DNA of 35,159 bases from Bordetella parapertussis (GCA_945893125.1 CAMDDY010000003.1:1-35159), one strand, 5' to 3'. Shown: positions 19,782 through 33,945, counted from the first letter of the stretch. A program made the numbers and translations. The notes: generated from the letters alone by a model not told the origin.

Positions 19782-19864
19782 TCGTCGTTCCGGCGCAGAC
19801 GGGAACCCATAGGGTGTCGCAAGTGGCACTGTGTTATGGGTTCCCGCCTGCGCGGGAACGACGA
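19782..19864. repeat. CGTC-type REP doublet
   Basis: TCGTCGTTCCGGCGCAGACGGGAACCCATA, 23-nt spacer, TATGGGTTCCCGCCTGCGCGGGAACGACGA; spacer homologous to the one at 9034-9056. Confidence 0.88.
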
Positions 19865-19900
19865 AGGGAAAGATCGTTTGTCCTTAATGAGATTCTGCCC

Positions 19901-20860
19901 ATGATCCGTATCGCATTCGCCGTTCTACTGACTACCGCCACGCTTGCTGACGCGCAGCAGGTGCAATACCCCGCCAAAACCGTGCGCCTCGTGGTGCCGC
20001 TGGTCGCCGGCGGCCCCACCGACATCCTCGCGCGGCTGATCGCGCAGCCGCTCGGTGAAAAACTCGCCCATCAGGTCGTGGTGGACAATCGTCCCGGCGC
20101 GGGCGGCAACATCGGCGCGGAAATGGTGGCGAAGTCGCCGCCGGACGGCCACACTTTGTTCATGGGCACCTCGGGCCCGATGTCGATCAACATCAGCCTC
20201 TATCCGAAATTAGGCTATGACCCGTTGCGTGATTTCGCGCCGATTATCCTGGCGGCCTCCGCGCCATTTGCCGTGGTGGTGCATCCCGCGTTGCCCGCCG
20301 GCAACATCAAACAGTTGATTGCGCTGGTGAAAGCCAAACCGAATCAACTGAACTACGGCGCGGTGCCCGGCAACGCCGCGCATCTAGCGACGGAGTTATT
20401 CAAGAGCATGGCGGGCCTCGACATGGTGTTCGTGCCGTACAAAGGCGCCGCGCCCGCCAATACCGATCTGGTGGCGGGGCAGATCCAGTTGTCGTTTGCC
20501 TCAACGCCGGGCGCAATGCCGCTGGTGAAAGGCGGACGCCTGAAAGCGCTGGCCATTTCGAGCGCCAAGCGTATCGCCAAGCTGCCCGATCTGCCGACCA
20601 TCGCCGAATCCGGCGTGGCGGGCTACGAAGCCAGCGTGTGGTACGGCATCGTTGCGCCGGCGAAAACCGCGCCGGAAATCATCGCGCGGCTGTACAAGGA
20701 AAGTGCCGCGATACTGCAAGACCGCGTGAGCCGCGAAAAATTCGACGCCAATGATTTCGAAGCGACGGTGCTGAATCCGGAGCAGTTCGGCGCACATATA
20801 CGCAGTGAAATCGCCAAGTGGGGCAAGGTGGTTAAGGCCACCGGCGCGCGCGCGGAGTAA
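19901..20860 (+). CDS. Bug/TctC substrate-binding protein
   Basis: Signal peptide ending ADA-Q, YPAKTVRLVVP, DNRPGAGG, VPYKG. The upstream ORF extension is REP-derived. Confidence 0.92.
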   Translation: MIRIAFAVLLTTATLADAQQVQYPAKTVRLVVPLVAGGPTDILARLIAQPLGEKLAHQVVVDNRPGAGGNIGAEMVAKSPPDGHTLFMGTSGPMSINISLYPKLGYDPLRDFAPIILAASAPFAVVVHPALPAGNIKQLIALVKAKPNQLNYGAVPGNAAHLATELFKSMAGLDMVFVPYKGAAPANTDLVAGQIQLSFASTPGAMPLVKGGRLKALAISSAKRIAKLPDLPTIAESGVAGYEASVWYGIVAPAKTAPEIIARLYKESAAILQDRVSREKFDANDFEATVLNPEQFGAHIRSEIAKWGKVVKATGARAE

Positions 20861-22151: not shown

Positions 22152-22718
22152 TTACTTGAACGCCGCGCCGTAATTGTCGCGATAGGTAAACTCGGCTATC
22201 GCCTTGCGCGTGCGCGGTTTCAAATCCTTGGCGCGCACTTCTTCGATCAAATCTTCCACGCGACCGCGATAACCCGCCGCCATCACCGCCACCGGCTTGG
22301 CATTGGCGGGAATATTAAAACCCTTGCAGATTTTGTCGTAATCAAACCCCGCCATGGCGTGAATGGTGAGGCCCATGGCGTAACCTTGCACCATCATGTT
22401 TTCCATGGCGAAGCCGACATCAAGCATGAAATTCTGCAAGCCGTTGCGTTCGGGTTGCTCTTCGGGCACGCCGATAATCACCATCTTCAGCGCGCCGGGC
22501 GGCGCCCATTGTTTGTTGCCCGCGGATAAGGCGTCGTCGAAGATGCGCTGGGCTTCCGCGCTCGACGCGATCAGCACGCGCCACGGTTGCCGGTTGTTGG
22601 ACGACGGCGCCCAGCGGAAGGCATCGAGCAGCGTTTCTATGGTTTCGGCTTCCAGCGGTTTGTTGGCGAAATGGCGGTCGCTGCGGCGGTCGCGGATGAC
22701 ATCGAGTAGTTTGGACAT
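22152..22718 (-). CDS. Nitroreductase family protein
   Basis: RRSDRHF, RWAPSSNNRQPWR, D.GFA.ENM, H.MAGFD, PRTRK. Confidence 0.92.
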   Translation of the reverse strand: MSKLLDVIRDRRSDRHFANKPLEAETIETLLDAFRWAPSSNNRQPWRVLIASSAEAQRIFDDALSAGNKQWAPPGALKMVIIGVPEEQPERNGLQNFMLDVGFAMENMMVQGYAMGLTIHAMAGFDYDKICKGFNIPANAKPVAVMAAGYRGRVEDLIEEVRAKDLKPRTRKAIAEFTYRDNYGAAFK

Positions 22719-22778
22719 GAATTTTCCGTGGTTACAGTGAATAAATGACGCGCGGGTCTGGTTTGCGCGAAAACCGGC

Positions 22779-22806
22779 ATTTTGGGCAATTTCCGGGGCT
22801 TGTCAA
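22779..22806 (-). promoter_or_regulatory. Putative sigma70 promoter for the nitroreductase (TTGACA-16-CAAAAT)
   Basis: Perfect -35 on the minus strand at 22801-22806. Confidence 0.45.
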
Positions 22807-22859
22807 TAAAATCACCGGCGTGTGTGACCGGTACTTGGGGTGGCCTATTTTAGAGGCTT

Positions 22860-22902
22860 TGTGACTTTTTTCACAGACAGCACGGGCGCGCGGGCGGATA
22901 CT
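22860..22902 (+). promoter_or_regulatory. CRP-family box (TGTGA-N6-TCACA) plus -10 (GATACT): class II-type activated promoter
   Basis: TGTGACTTTTTTCACA at 22860-22875 (centre 22867.5); GATACT at 22897-22902. A start at ~22909 places the box at -41.5. Confidence 0.7.
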
Positions 22903-22908
22903 TTGTTC

Positions 22909-22981
22909 TCGCAATCACTCCTCAACTCCTCCTTTGTTGATTGCCTTCACCGCGACGGGCTTCCCGCCGCGGTTTTTCTTT
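22909..22981 (+). ncRNA. Candidate trans-acting sRNA with anti-Shine-Dalgarno (CUCCUCCU) loop
   Basis: Stem GCAATCA/TGATTGC encloses CTCCTCAACTCCTCCTTTGT, followed by a terminator; own promoter; no ORF. Confidence 0.7.
22949..22981 (+). terminator. Rho-independent terminator
   Basis: ACCGCG-A-CGGG-CTT-CCCG-C-CGCGGT followed by TTTTCTTT; no CDS ends upstream of it on the + strand. Confidence 0.85.
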
Positions 22982-23028
22982 GTGGGTCGGCATGATATGC
23001 GGACTGCCGAAAACCGGCGGCGTGAAAT

Positions 23029-23037
23029 TGCTATGAT
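23029..23037 (+). promoter_or_regulatory. Putative extended -10 (TGcTATGAT) for the carboxyltransferase gene
   Basis: Downstream of the terminator, ~40 nt before ATG 23076 (AGGAG RBS). Confidence 0.5.
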
Positions 23038-23075
23038 GGCGGGCGATCCCTAGACCCCGCCAGCAGGAGCAGCCG

Positions 23076-24611
23076 ATGCCGTTTGAAGCCTTGATCCGCG
23101 ACTACGAAGAACGCACGCAACGTGCGCTGGCGATGGGCGGAGCGGAAAAACTCGCCGCGCGCAAAGCCGCCGGCGTGCTGAACGCGCGTGAACGGGTCGA
23201 TCATTTGCTGGATGCCGGCAGTTTTATCGAATCCGGTCGCTACGCCACTTCGGCGCGTGCAGAGGTGCGTCATAAAACGCCGGGTGACGGCAAGGTGGTG
23301 GGCTTTGGCCGCATCGACGGGCGCGAAGTGGGCGTGATTTCCAATGATTTCACCGTGCTCGGCGCATCCAGCGCGGTAATCAATCAGAAAAAAGTAAAAC
23401 ACGTTAAAAACGTCGCCACCAAACGCGGCTTTCCGATGGTGTTTCTGGGTGAAACCAGCGGCGCGCGCATGCCCGATCGCATGGGCGCGACGGGCCGCTC
23501 GATCGTCGGGCAGGACGGCGCGGAATATCAACGGCTGCGCAAATCGCCGTGGGCGTCGGCGCTGCTCGGCAGTTGTTTCGGCCACTCGGCGTGGTACGCG
23601 AGCCTGTCTGACTTTACCGTGATGCGCAAAGGCGCGGTGATGGCGGTGGCCAGCCATCGCGTGGCGGAAAAAGCCATCGGCCGGCCGATCACACCCGAGG
23701 AACTCGGCGGCTGGCGCATGCATACGCGCACCTCGGGGCTGGTGGATGTTGCGGTGGATACGGATGCGCAGGCGCTGGACGCCATCAAGAAATTTTTGTC
23801 GTATCTGCCGAGTCACTGTAACGAAGCGCCGCCGGTGTTGCCGGTTCCCGTGGGTTCGGACGACGCGATCCGGCAGGTGCTCGACATCCTGCCGGAAGCA
23901 CGCTCGCAGGTGTACGACGTGCGCAAAATCATCGACGCAATCGCCGATAAAGGCTCGCGCTTTGATCTGAAACCGGATTTCGGCAAATCGGTGGTCACCG
24001 CGTTGACACGCATCGACGGCCACACCACCGGCATCATCGCCAACAATCCGCTCTTTAAGGGCGGCGCGCTGGATGTCGATGCCTGCGCCAAGGTGACGAG
24101 TTTTCTGGTGTTGTGCGATTCGTTCAATATTCCCATCGTGTTTCTGGTGGATGTGCCGGGCTTTCTGATCGGGCTTGAAGGCGAACAGCGCGGCGCGCCG
24201 GGACGCATCATCAACTGGGTCAACGCGTTGTCGCTGGTCACCGTGCCGAAGATATCCATCATCCTGCGCAAGAGTTACGGCAAAGCGTATCTCAACATGG
24301 GCGGCGGCAAAAATTCCGATGAAGTCGCGTGCTGGCCCACGGCGGATCTGGGCTTTGTCGATCCATCTGTCGGTGTGAACATTTTGCATGGCCTCAAACA
24401 GGAAGATGATCCGGAACGTTTCAAACAACTCGCCGCCGAAATCGAGCAGGATAACTCGGTGTGGGGCCTCGCTGCCTTATACGAAACGCAATCAGTGATC
24501 GATCCGCGCGACACACGCGATTATCTGATCCGCACGCTGCAAGTGCATCGCATGCGGATGACGGGCGGCGTCGGCGAACATCTGATCAGCAACTGGCCGA
24601 CGACGTTTTAA
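23076..24611 (+). CDS. Acyl-CoA carboxyltransferase beta-type subunit (PccB/MmdA-like), divergent
   Basis: G.LNARERVD.LLD.GSF.E, PGDG.V.G.G.IDGR, DFTVLG, SGARM, EELGG, LCDSFNIP.VFLVDVPGF, IDPRDTR. Confidence 0.9.
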   Translation: MPFEALIRDYEERTQRALAMGGAEKLAARKAAGVLNARERVDHLLDAGSFIESGRYATSARAEVRHKTPGDGKVVGFGRIDGREVGVISNDFTVLGASSAVINQKKVKHVKNVATKRGFPMVFLGETSGARMPDRMGATGRSIVGQDGAEYQRLRKSPWASALLGSCFGHSAWYASLSDFTVMRKGAVMAVASHRVAEKAIGRPITPEELGGWRMHTRTSGLVDVAVDTDAQALDAIKKFLSYLPSHCNEAPPVLPVPVGSDDAIRQVLDILPEARSQVYDVRKIIDAIADKGSRFDLKPDFGKSVVTALTRIDGHTTGIIANNPLFKGGALDVDACAKVTSFLVLCDSFNIPIVFLVDVPGFLIGLEGEQRGAPGRIINWVNALSLVTVPKISIILRKSYGKAYLNMGGGKNSDEVACWPTADLGFVDPSVGVNILHGLKQEDDPERFKQLAAEIEQDNSVWGLAALYETQSVIDPRDTRDYLIRTLQVHRMRMTGGVGEHLISNWPTTF

Positions 24612-25659: not shown

Positions 25660-26625
25660 ATGCGTATCGCATTAACACTGAGCGGCATTTTGATGCTCGC
25701 ACCCGCGCCGGCGCGCTCACAAACGGAGCCCGCGTATCCGGCAAAACCAGTGCGCATCATCGTGCCCGTTGCGCCCGGCGGCAGCACGGACATACTGTCC
25801 CGGCTGGTCGCGCAACGATTGACCGAGGTGTGGCGTACACAGGTCGTGGTCGAGAACCGGCCCGGTGGCGCCGGCGGCATTGTCGGCGTCGATTATGTGG
25901 CCAAGAGCGCACCCGACGGCTACACCCTGATCATGGGATACATCGGCACCTTCTCGTTTCTGCCGTCGGTATTTCCCAAGATGCCCTACGATCCGGTGCG
26001 GGATTTCGCGCCGCTGTCGCTGGTCGCGATGGTGCCCAACATGATGGCCATACACCCCTCGGTGCCGGCGAAAACCGTGAAGGAACTGGTGGCGCTGGCC
26101 CGCAGCCGCCCCGGCCAACTCAACTACGGCTCATCCGGCAACGGCAGCAACTCGCATGTGTCGGTGGAGTATTTCAAGCAATTGACCGGAACGGACATCC
26201 AGCAGATTCCCTACAAAGGCGCCGGTTTGACGATGATTGATCTGTTGGGCGGACACATCACGCTTACCGTGACCGGGGTGCCGCCGATCATCCCGCATGT
26301 GCGCAGCAACCGGCTGCGCGCGCTGGGTGTCGCCACCGACAAGCGGCTCGACATACTGCCCAATGTACCGACGATCGCGGAAGCCGGCGTGCCGGGTTAT
26401 GAAATTACCCAATGGTACGGCCTGCTCGCGCCGGTGGGCACACCGCGTGACATCGTGCGAAAGCTGAATAGCGAAATCGTGCGCTATCTGCAATTGCCGG
26501 ACACTGCGGCCAGGATGTCCAGCGGAGGCGCCATTCCGACCGGCAACACGCCGGAGCAATTTCACGAGCTGATCAAAGCAGAAATCCCGCGTTGGGCCAA
26601 GGTGCTTAAGCAGGCTGGGTTGTAG
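25660..26625 (+). CDS. Bug/TctC substrate-binding protein
   Basis: GGAGGA RBS, signal peptide, YPAKPVRIIVP.APGGSTD, YGSSGNGS, IPYKG. Confidence 0.92.
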   Translation: MRIALTLSGILMLAPAPARSQTEPAYPAKPVRIIVPVAPGGSTDILSRLVAQRLTEVWRTQVVVENRPGGAGGIVGVDYVAKSAPDGYTLIMGYIGTFSFLPSVFPKMPYDPVRDFAPLSLVAMVPNMMAIHPSVPAKTVKELVALARSRPGQLNYGSSGNGSNSHVSVEYFKQLTGTDIQQIPYKGAGLTMIDLLGGHITLTVTGVPPIIPHVRSNRLRALGVATDKRLDILPNVPTIAEAGVPGYEITQWYGLLAPVGTPRDIVRKLNSEIVRYLQLPDTAARMSSGGAIPTGNTPEQFHELIKAEIPRWAKVLKQAGL

Positions 26626-32858: not shown

Positions 32859-33812
32859 TTAATTGCTGCGTATACCCGCTTCCTGAATCAGCTTGCGCCA
32901 GCGCGCGATTTCCTCGGACAAAAACTTGCCTAAATCCTGCGGCGTACCGCCGCCGGGGATCAAGCCGTGCCCCGACAGCCGCTCGCGGGTTTCCGGCGCT
33001 TTCAGCGTCTTGACGATTTCGCCGTTGATTTTTTGAATCACGGCAGCCGGCGTGCCCGCCGGCGCAAACAAACCAAACCAGCCGATCACCTGAAAACCCG
33101 GCAACCCCGATTCTGCCACTGTTGGGTATTCCGGGATTTCCGCCACGCGCGTGGTGCTGGTCACCGCCAGCGCGCGCAACTTGCCCGCCTTGACCTGCTG
33201 CAGCGCCGCCGGAATCGTCGAAAAATAAATCTGCACATTGCCCGCGATCAAATCGATCACCGCCGGCCCGCCGCCTTTGTACGCGATGCTGACGATATCC
33301 ACACCGGCTGTGCGTTTGAACAACTCGCCCGCGAGATGCGCGGTGGTGCCGCTGCCGGAATTGGCGTAATTGAGTTGGCCCGCGCGCGCCTTAGCGAGCG
33401 TAATCAACTCGCCGACGGATTTTGCCGGCACCGACGGGTTCACCACCAGCAGCAACGGCGCCGAGGCCACCAGCGCAATCGGCGCGAAATCTTTTTCCGT
33501 GTTGAACGGCAGTTTGGAATAGAGACTCGGATTCACCGGGAACGAGGTGATCGGCATCACCAGCGTGTGGCCATCCGGCACGGCGCGCGCCGCCAGCTCA
33601 ACACCGATGTTGCCCGATGCGCCGCTGCGGTTGTCGATGACCACGGTTTGCCCCCACGCCTCGGCGAGTTTCGCGCCGATCAGCCGCGCGGAAAAATCCG
33701 TGCCGCCGCCAGGTGCGGTGGGCACGATGAGGCGTATGGGTTTGGTCGGATAACCTTGTGCGGCGGCGGGCAGCAGCAGTGCGAGAATCATCAAACTGGC
33801 GAGACGTTTCAA
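32859..33812 (-). CDS. Bug/TctC substrate-binding protein
   Basis: Probable TTG start at 33812, signal ending AAA-Q, YPTKPIRLIVP.APGGGTD, YKGGGPA. Confidence 0.9.
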   Translation of the reverse strand: MKRLASLMILALLLPAAAQGYPTKPIRLIVPTAPGGGTDFSARLIGAKLAEAWGQTVVIDNRSGASGNIGVELAARAVPDGHTLVMPITSFPVNPSLYSKLPFNTEKDFAPIALVASAPLLLVVNPSVPAKSVGELITLAKARAGQLNYANSGSGTTAHLAGELFKRTAGVDIVSIAYKGGGPAVIDLIAGNVQIYFSTIPAALQQVKAGKLRALAVTSTTRVAEIPEYPTVAESGLPGFQVIGWFGLFAPAGTPAAVIQKINGEIVKTLKAPETRERLSGHGLIPGGGTPQDLGKFLSEEIARWRKLIQEAGIRSN

Positions 33813-33945
33813 TGGGTTGCCCTTTTTCGGAATGCGCAGTTTGCCACATCCTGCGGCCACACGGGCGCAAGCAAAAAGTTCAATAAAAACATATGCTTAT
33901 AATACATCGTCTGAAGAGACAGGCCGCCGCGGCACGAATTCGCGT

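Follow-up and report, generated by a model that had tools for sequence, protein, structure and literature searches.

A candidate small RNA gene with a CRP/Vfr-type promoter box and a CU-rich anti-Shine-Dalgarno loop, conserved in uncultured Betaproteobacteria

The interval 22860-22981 of the window (the whole stretch of DNA analysed here, 35,159 nucleotides) is, judged from sequence comparison, very probably a real, conserved, and unannotated small RNA (sRNA) gene of an uncultured lake-water betaproteobacterium. Its most likely activator would be a Vfr/CRP-like regulator acting through a class-II promoter, and its product would, by analogy with RNAs studied elsewhere, probably act by Shine-Dalgarno (SD) occlusion; the three propositions taken jointly retain a somewhat better than even chance. 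The anatomy of the locus, its conservation, the covariation of its stems, the fixed spacing of its promoter elements, its independence from the downstream gene, and the presence of a fitting regulator in congeners are established here.

In the mechanism that we propose, the interval would be a self-contained gene for a trans-acting sRNA of ~73 nt. Its weak sigma-70 promoter (CAGACA, 17 bp, GATACT) would need a dimeric Vfr/CRP-like cyclic-nucleotide receptor, which would bind TGTGA-N6-TCACA near -41.5 and bring about class-II activation, not repression. In the resulting transcript a 7-bp hairpin would display CUCCUC and CUCCUCCUUU in a 20-nt loop, with a terminator and its U tail following. The loop would mimic the 3' end of 16S rRNA and pair, probably with Hfq, with the GGAG-rich SD regions of a set of mRNAs, so that a high cyclic-nucleotide signal would block translation initiation. 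Such an sRNA would be a diverged relative or an analogue of the double-hairpin CU-rich sRNAs (RF02278/NcS27, Bordetella S17S, Neisseria NmsR), with a transcriptional input like that of enterobacterial CyaR.

CU-rich anti-SD sRNAs such as NcS27, S17S, and NmsR are increasingly recognized as regulators that act on metabolism globally in Betaproteobacteria. The inputs given for them are growth arrest and starvation, Bvg, and RelA, and no transcription-factor site is named in the accessible portions of the papers describing them (PMC5688073, PMC11722255, PMC5362039). The locus described here would provide a clean, conserved link between a CRP/Vfr-type regulator and an RNA of this kind, in a lineage that has no cultured member among the matches and carries a very large Bug/TctC family.

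The unit begins with a perfect palindromic box of the CRP/Vfr type, TGTGA-N6-TCACA (TGTGACTTTTTTCACA, 22860-22875, assigned to neither strand), centred at 22867.5. A weak -35-like hexamer, CAGACA (22874-22879, + strand), overlaps the box and lies 17 bp before the -10 hexamer GATACT (22897-22902, + strand), which in turn follows TCACA by exactly 21 nt; CAGACA may function as the -35 element. With transcription starting near 22909 (predicted to within ~2 nt), the centre of the box falls at -41.5, so that both the 16-bp core and the 21-nt gap of a class-II promoter are present. The transcript of ~73 nt (22909-22981, + strand), both ends of which are predictions, opens with hairpin 1 (22911-22944, + strand), present in the minimum-free-energy (MFE) structure and in the RNAalifold consensus and marked by covariation. 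Its 7-bp stem pairs GCAATCA (22911-22917) with TGATTGC (22938-22944), and its 20-nt loop (22918-22937), reading CTCCTCAACTCCTCCTTTGT, holds two CU-rich anti-SD motifs, CTCCTC (22918-22923) and CTCCTCCTTT (22926-22935), all on the + strand. The intrinsic terminator on the same strand consists of a GC-rich hairpin (22949-22973) and the U tract TTTTTCTTT, which extends to 22981.

The predicted 73-nt RNA folds with -23.4 kcal/mol (z = -4.68), a value equalled by none of 200 shuffled sequences, and in the MFE fold both hairpins form and the loop is unpaired. Thus the box, GATACT, the 7-bp stem, the CU loop, and the terminator, which an earlier note on this DNA had described, are each found by sequence and fold where it had placed them, and its perfect box 41.5 bp before the start is confirmed for the predicted start at ~22909. 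A scanner for consensus promoters and terminators listed neither the GATACT promoter nor the terminator at 22949-22981, which we attribute to the weak -35 element (CAGACA) and to an A/C mismatch within the terminator stem.

On its own, the box is not exceptional. It is the only match in the window at no more than one mismatch, and 39 of 100 shuffled windows contain at least one such match; the 5.02-Mb assembly from which the window derives holds two perfect boxes against ~2.6 expected from base composition by our own arithmetic, and is thus not enriched in them genome-wide. Because the box alone lies within chance, the case rests on comparative evidence, and it is the conservation of box and spacing in relatives that carries the box beyond chance.

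The window is one contig (C3) of a 614-contig assembly (G000) that is 84% complete, and the nearest named records to it are metagenome-assembled genomes (MAGs) of uncultured Betaproteobacteria or Burkholderiales. BLASTN located the unit in 11 of 20 genomes of the same genus. A covariance model built from 12 copies (R1) gave a single strong match, of 61.6-96.8 bits, in 13 of 16 sampled same-genus genomes; three genomes (G008, G010, and G015) had no match to it. The 13 matches, together with two copies found by BLASTN (in G018 and G006), make up 15 congener copies, on which R1 scores 61.6-97.1 bits (11 of the 15 being its own training rows), compared with 87 bits at the window locus. All 15 copies retrieved keep the box, its spacing, and the loop, and show compensatory changes in the stem. 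Counting the window copy, 15 of the 16 copies in the genus have an exact GTGA-N6-TCAC and the sixteenth departs from it by one mismatch, and the gap of 21 nt from TCACA to an xAxxxT hexamer (GATACT, CATACT, GAAACT, or GACACT) is present in 16 of 16. The motif TCACAGAC is kept at the -35-like region of the genus alignment, alignment A1 shows no change in the T tract, and the most conserved part of the loop, the core CUCCUCCUU, is kept across the 16 copies along with the stem and the terminator. The flanks diverge, with identity ending just 5' of the box and just 3' of the T tract.

Weaker R1 matches occur in other genera of the family, and four copies from other genera (G024, G070, G082, and G060) have the same box, the 21-nt gap, the CU-loop hairpin, and the terminator, with CATGAT, GATAAT, or TATATT as the -10 hexamer. 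Conservation of box and loop, the lack of which the earlier note had named as grounds for abandoning its proposal, is therefore found both in the genus and beyond it, and the -41.5 class-II geometry that it had pointed out is likewise maintained in the genus copies and in these four.

The two helices show the changes expected of a folded RNA. Among 22 distinct sequences (alignment A2), 97.0% of the cells are paired and 8 of 17 pairs have changed on both sides, in an alignment that was fitted to the model structure and consequently favours it. In hairpin 1, 5 of the 7 stem pairs have changed on both sides, with 98.6% of the cells paired, and 3 of the 10 terminator pairs carry compensatory changes in the same set. 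Five measures of structure were used, and in 500 shuffles not one of them was equalled; slid controls were 31-46% paired. An independent MAFFT/RNAalifold analysis of 12 sequences recovered the same two helices with three compensatory pairs.

A scan of 185,579 species genomes for the box combined with CUCCUCC produced 56 matches, compared with ~30 expected by chance according to our own arithmetic. R1 confirmed 12 of them, all in betaproteobacterial MAGs, at E <= 0.00022; a further match in a gammaproteobacterial MAG (L189) is marginal (R1 E = 0.0053), and the remaining 43 have no R1 match at E <= 0.01. The copies confirmed in this stringent scan are thus confined to uncultured betaproteobacterial MAGs. 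BLASTN revealed no second copy in the window's own genome, making the unit a single-copy gene. The only other R1 match in that genome (C386:26-107, E = 0.25) has neither the CU loop nor promoter signals in its flanks and was set aside.

Half-sites reading GTGA/TCAC are of the CRP/Vfr/Clp type, and FNR-type sites read TTGAT-N4-ATCAA. By its sequence, the box is of the CRP/Vfr type and not of the FNR type. All five complete congener genomes encode a Vfr/CRP-like protein of 229-260 amino acids with the helix ASREMVSRV, a recognition helix of the CRP type (R-E-x-x-x-R), as well as FNR-like paralogues with ETVSR. The best solved relatives of the former are Pseudomonas Vfr (E = 1.6e-35; aligned helix SREMVGRV) and E. 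coli CRP; it retains the GE...RSA motif of the nucleotide pocket, and the NCBIfam CRP model gives it 162 bits, below the equivalog cut-off of 266. Of the alternatives left open by the earlier designation "CRP/FNR", therefore, the CRP/Vfr one describes the box, given the GTGA/TCAC half-sites and the CRP-type helix in congeners, and the FNR one does not. The suggested redox responsiveness is likewise unsupported, as the congener regulator has the CRP-type helix SREMVSRV and its best matches are Vfr and CRP.

Matches to this regulator at E <= 1e-30 are present in 93 of 100 genomes of the family (a tally that includes one unpublished genome, G043), the best of them mostly 62-96% identical, and in 15 of the 16 further genomes of the genus that were sampled. 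Searches of the window's own genome and of G015 did not find it. G015 has neither regulator nor RNA, and G008 and G010 have the regulator with no match to the RNA model. In the own assembly, PF13545 gave no match over its cut-off, no Crp-type helix-turn-helix (HTH) exceeded the Pfam cut-offs, and tblastn with the congener regulators detected no orthologue. Since that assembly is 84% complete, a gap in it is the simplest reading and probably accounts for the absence. The only cNMP/HTH protein found there has 202 residues and a differing helix, SPETLSR. This cNMP-binding protein (L140:6117-6725, + strand, on contig C273) has a short C-terminal HTH below the Crp HTH cut-offs, and all five congeners examined contain ORFs of similar length (207-237 amino acids) whose HTH match is equally weak and partial. 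Five genes for class-III nucleotide cyclases are present in the own genome. No CRP-type box was seen 5' of the congener CRP-like genes; one such site lies just downstream of the gene in G001.

The distance between box and -10 hexamer recurs elsewhere in the own genome. Among 156 non-repeat GTGA-N6-TCAC sites, 29 are intergenic according to crude gene calls, giving 58 orientations; a strong -10-like hexamer follows at a gap of 21 in five of these, whereas each of the remaining gaps between 12 and 31 accounts for zero to two. Sites within coding sequence show no peak at 21. Although the peak rests on five sites, a small sample, its recurrence is the pattern expected of class-II promoters. Besides that of the sRNA, the four gap-21 sites (L143:284-297, - strand; L140:3447-3460, - strand; L141:4212-4225, + strand; L139:4291-4304, - strand) precede a PP2C-FHA-CHASE2 operon, a FecR/SPOR gene, and two unassigned ORFs; in a sixth case (L142:2660-2673, + strand) the gap is 20 and the site lies after a class-III cyclase gene. 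Together, these sites may form a small CRP-like regulon.

The same genome contains a REP-like repeat with GGTGAAACCCATCACA or its complement, at ~50 intergenic sites, which mimics a CRP box with one mismatch. Its copies often form inverted pairs ~40 bp apart (for example, C14:2162 and 2260, C34:17372 and 17414, and C303:3641 and 3682). The repeat swamped the list of one-mismatch boxes and was excluded from the gap analysis.

The RNA gene might be real and the box not its activator site. The box could be a repressor site, the site of another dimeric regulator, or an element serving the divergent nitroreductase-family gene on the left (22152-22718, - strand, 188 amino acids), with the RNA transcribed constitutively or arising from another promoter as a longer precursor that is processed in the way that Bordetella S17L yields S17S. 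That gene divergently adjoins the RNA in all 13 genus loci tested, its start codon is ~150 bp from the centre of the box, and searches of the 84%-complete own assembly did not reveal the cognate regulator. The consensus scan also lists another promoter-like site on the + strand (22783-22812, 9 of 12 matches) that could yield a longer precursor, and both S17S and NcS27 are described as being processed from longer forms (accessible text of PMC11722255 and PMC5688073). Nevertheless, the 21-nt spacing is invariant in the 16 genus copies and the four from other genera, and at three of the latter loci (L035-L037) no nitroreductase neighbour was found, which indicates that the box travels with the RNA and not with the nitroreductase gene. 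Moreover, the nitroreductase gene has a promoter of its own, TTGACA-16-CAAAAT (10 of 12 matches), further away, and the lack of conservation 5' of the box within the genus speaks against a longer precursor being a conserved feature. Weighing both sides, we consider a role of the box other than activation of the RNA rather unlikely, and the class-II reading remains the preferred one.

In its relation to known RNAs, the unit resembles several families without belonging to any of them. The whole window has no match at the gathering thresholds of Rfam 15, which thus leave this RNA family uncaptured, and a scan of the 401 nt at 22700-23100 at E <= 10 gave four matches. The best-scoring, NmsRb (RF02877), reaches 24.1 bits against a gathering score of 52; RF02278, the Betaproteobacteria toxic sRNA, 21.8 bits against 50 (E = 0.036 on the 401 nt and 0.11 versus the whole genome); and ncS54 (RF02871), 21.3 bits against 43. 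All three scores are below half of the gathering scores, and the three alignments span the full models. Each of the three families consists of CU-rich regulators from Betaproteobacteria (PMC5688073, PMC5362039, PMC11722255, accessible portions). A search against Rfam had been suggested as a way to place the RNA; it bears out the resemblance to CU-rich betaproteobacterial sRNAs and speaks against membership in RF02278.

RF02278 itself is widespread, scoring over its cut-off in 44 of 121 genomes of the order. Its members in Burkholderia cenocepacia include ncS03, ncS05, NcS27 (bdhR1 in PMC11722255), and ncS62, and the name "toxic" derives from growth inhibition upon overexpression (PMC5688073). 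Like the window RNA, they come from the same bacterial class, have ~60-90 nt and two hairpins, the second being an intrinsic terminator, and carry two CU-rich unpaired stretches complementary to ribosome-binding sites (PMC5688073, as far as available), stretches that are seen here in the fold and in the covariation. The arrangement differs, however. In the window RNA a single large loop, which the conserved stem GCAAYC/GRUUGC closes, holds both CU motifs, whereas the 30 best canonical RF02278 loci read UGUCUCCUCCA-hairpin-terminator, and in 30 of 30 the first CU motif is located 5' of the hairpin, within UGUCUCCUCCA. In none of these 30 loci is GTGA-N6-TCAC present within 110 nt upstream. The "common upstream motif" of the Burkholderia homologues mentioned in PMC5688073, so far as its available text goes, may bear on whether a shared promoter element has already been described.

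S17S of Bordetella pertussis (S17/S17S, ~67 nt), which is related to RF02278, likewise uses single-stranded C/U-rich stretches to pair at or close to ribosome-binding sites; it depends on Hfq, and many of its proposed targets are transporters (PMC11722255, accessible text). At the window locus the promoter immediately precedes the short RNA. S17S, in contrast, is released by RNase E from a 190-nt transcript that begins at a plain sigma-A promoter, and it becomes more abundant in the Bvg+ mode; CRP is not mentioned in the main text of that paper (PMC11722255). Neisseria NmsRA/NmsRB (RF02877; NgncR_162/163) share the two anti-SD motifs in unpaired regions and repress mRNAs of central metabolism, but they have three hairpins, form a tandem pair, are transcribed from sigma-70 promoters, and are linked with RelA and the stringent response (PMC5362039, accessible text). 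The window RNA, unlike NmsR, is encoded by a single-copy gene with a CRP-type box.

The promoter of enterobacterial CyaR is of class II, and CyaR pairs via a C-rich loop. In regulatory logic CyaR is the nearest parallel to what we propose, being a CRP-cAMP-activated, Hfq-binding sRNA that represses metabolism-linked mRNAs (PMC4098024, accessible text), but it belongs to another bacterial class and has no sequence or structure relation to the window RNA, and CyaR was not among the Rfam matches of 22700-23100 at E <= 10. In the main texts of freely accessible papers, we found no description of a CRP-linked CU-rich or double-hairpin sRNA in Burkholderiales. The sub-threshold matches spanning full Rfam models, the canonical loci without a box, and the different placement of the CU motifs all suggest that the window RNA is either a structurally rearranged relative or a convergent analogue of the CU-rich sRNAs, and that it differs from them in transcriptional input.

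The own genome contains another candidate CU-rich sRNA, which has the canonical RF02278 shape (C50:4998-5064, - strand; L144:1999-2065), with CUCCUCC at the 5' side, a hairpin with the loop CCUCCUCCUUU, and a terminator. It scores 30.4 bits against the gathering score of 50 and is preceded by a plain sigma-70-like -35/-10 promoter with no CRP-type box.

Turning to possible targets, hfq is present in the own genome (contig C255, 104 bits), and this gene and the Rho-independent terminator with its U tail are the sequence-level features expected of an Hfq-dependent sRNA. Start regions were taken from 4294 ORFs of a crude GC3-based caller (81% coding), among which phmmer with two window proteins (E <= 1e-10) assigned 776 to the Bug/TctC set. 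The expansion of these solute receptors is extreme; examples in the window lie at 19814-20860, 25660-26625, and 32859-33860, and a Pfam PF03401 search of the genome gave 898 first-look candidates, with all 150 of the scored ones above 234 bits.

Complementarity of at least 9 nt to the loop was present at the start regions of 31 of the 4294 ORFs, with no functional class evident (5 of 776 Bug genes and 26 of 3518 others). At a minimum of 8 nt, the counts were 17 of 776 (2.2%) and 75 of 3518 (2.1%; p = 0.89), and a mild enrichment appeared only at a minimum of 7 nt (98 of 776, or 12.6%, against 327 of 3518, or 9.3%; p = 0.006), where it is due to the more frequent GAGGAG-type SDs of Bug genes. 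These figures are rough, as both gene calls and start codons come from the crude caller. GGAGGAG is itself commoner before Bug genes (2.2% against 0.4%), and the C50 candidate fits the Bug genes equally well. The coordinated control of the Bug repertoire that had been proposed is consequently unsupported, there being no enrichment at 8 nt or more and an equal fit of the C50 candidate. The SD candidates proposed within the window are indeed present, as ordinary SDs of 5-6 nt. Ranking the 4294 start regions against the loop with RNAduplex was uninformative, as G-rich GTGAGGCGTGAGG-type repeats, together with long looped duplexes, took up most of the top ranks. Such G-rich tandem repeats are found directly 5' of the putative starts of many ORFs in this genome (for example, C33:12906, C564:2063, and C18:10579).

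We can speculate, while considering it unlikely, that one CRP/Vfr-like-driven anti-SD sRNA might serve as a global translational brake on the Bug/TctC repertoire (~776 of ~4300 ORFs in a 5-Mb genome). If true, hundreds of orphan receptor genes in an uncultured freshwater lineage of Betaproteobacteria would gain the layer of regulation that they lack, and the RNA would be the first member under CRP control in the betaproteobacterial class of CU-rich sRNAs.

The generic character of the loop is compatible with an RNA that has no specific mRNA targets and titrates a protein or the ribosome, through Hfq, ribosomal protein S1, or another binder of C/U-rich RNA: the loop is a generic anti-SD sequence, its most conserved core is just CUCCUCCUU, and at a minimum of 8 nt no class of targets stands out. 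However, experimentally studied relatives with the same motifs pair at ribosome-binding sites, as indicated by compensatory mutations for the pair S17S-BP2158 (PMC11722255) and by anti-SD mutants for NmsRA (PMC5362039), in the accessible text of both. By this analogy, titration appears quite improbable, and SD occlusion remains the reading that we favour.

The gene on the right, for a carboxyl transferase (23076-24611), is followed by a gene of the PEP-mutase/isocitrate-lyase family. It is preceded by its own extended -10 (TGCTATGAT, 23029-23037), as the earlier note had observed. A carboxyl-transferase gene lies 3' of the RNA in only 1 of 16 loci tested (G020), and in the record L051. Because the downstream gene differs between relatives, and the unit keeps its own promoter and terminator, the contention that it is not the leader of the gene at 23076 stands. 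That the interval holds no RNA gene at all, being instead a DNA regulatory region of the nitroreductase gene with a stray terminator, a 51-codon ORF, or a leader that attenuates the gene at 23076, is highly improbable: although an overlapping 51-codon ORF with a GTG start occupies 22840-22995 and transcription of the unit is only predicted, the stem pairs covary as in RNA, loop indels of 1, 2, and 6 nt among congeners leave no conserved reading frame for the ORF, the divergent upstream gene leaves nothing for the terminator to terminate, and the downstream gene is not conserved and has a promoter element of its own.

Further to the left, beyond the nitroreductase gene, are genes for an FMN-dependent dehydrogenase and a TctC/Bug receptor. 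The 188-residue nitroreductase-family protein fits no NCBIfam equivalog, its best being malonic semialdehyde reductase with 59.6 bits against a cut-off of 152, and it is 80-95% identical across congeners.
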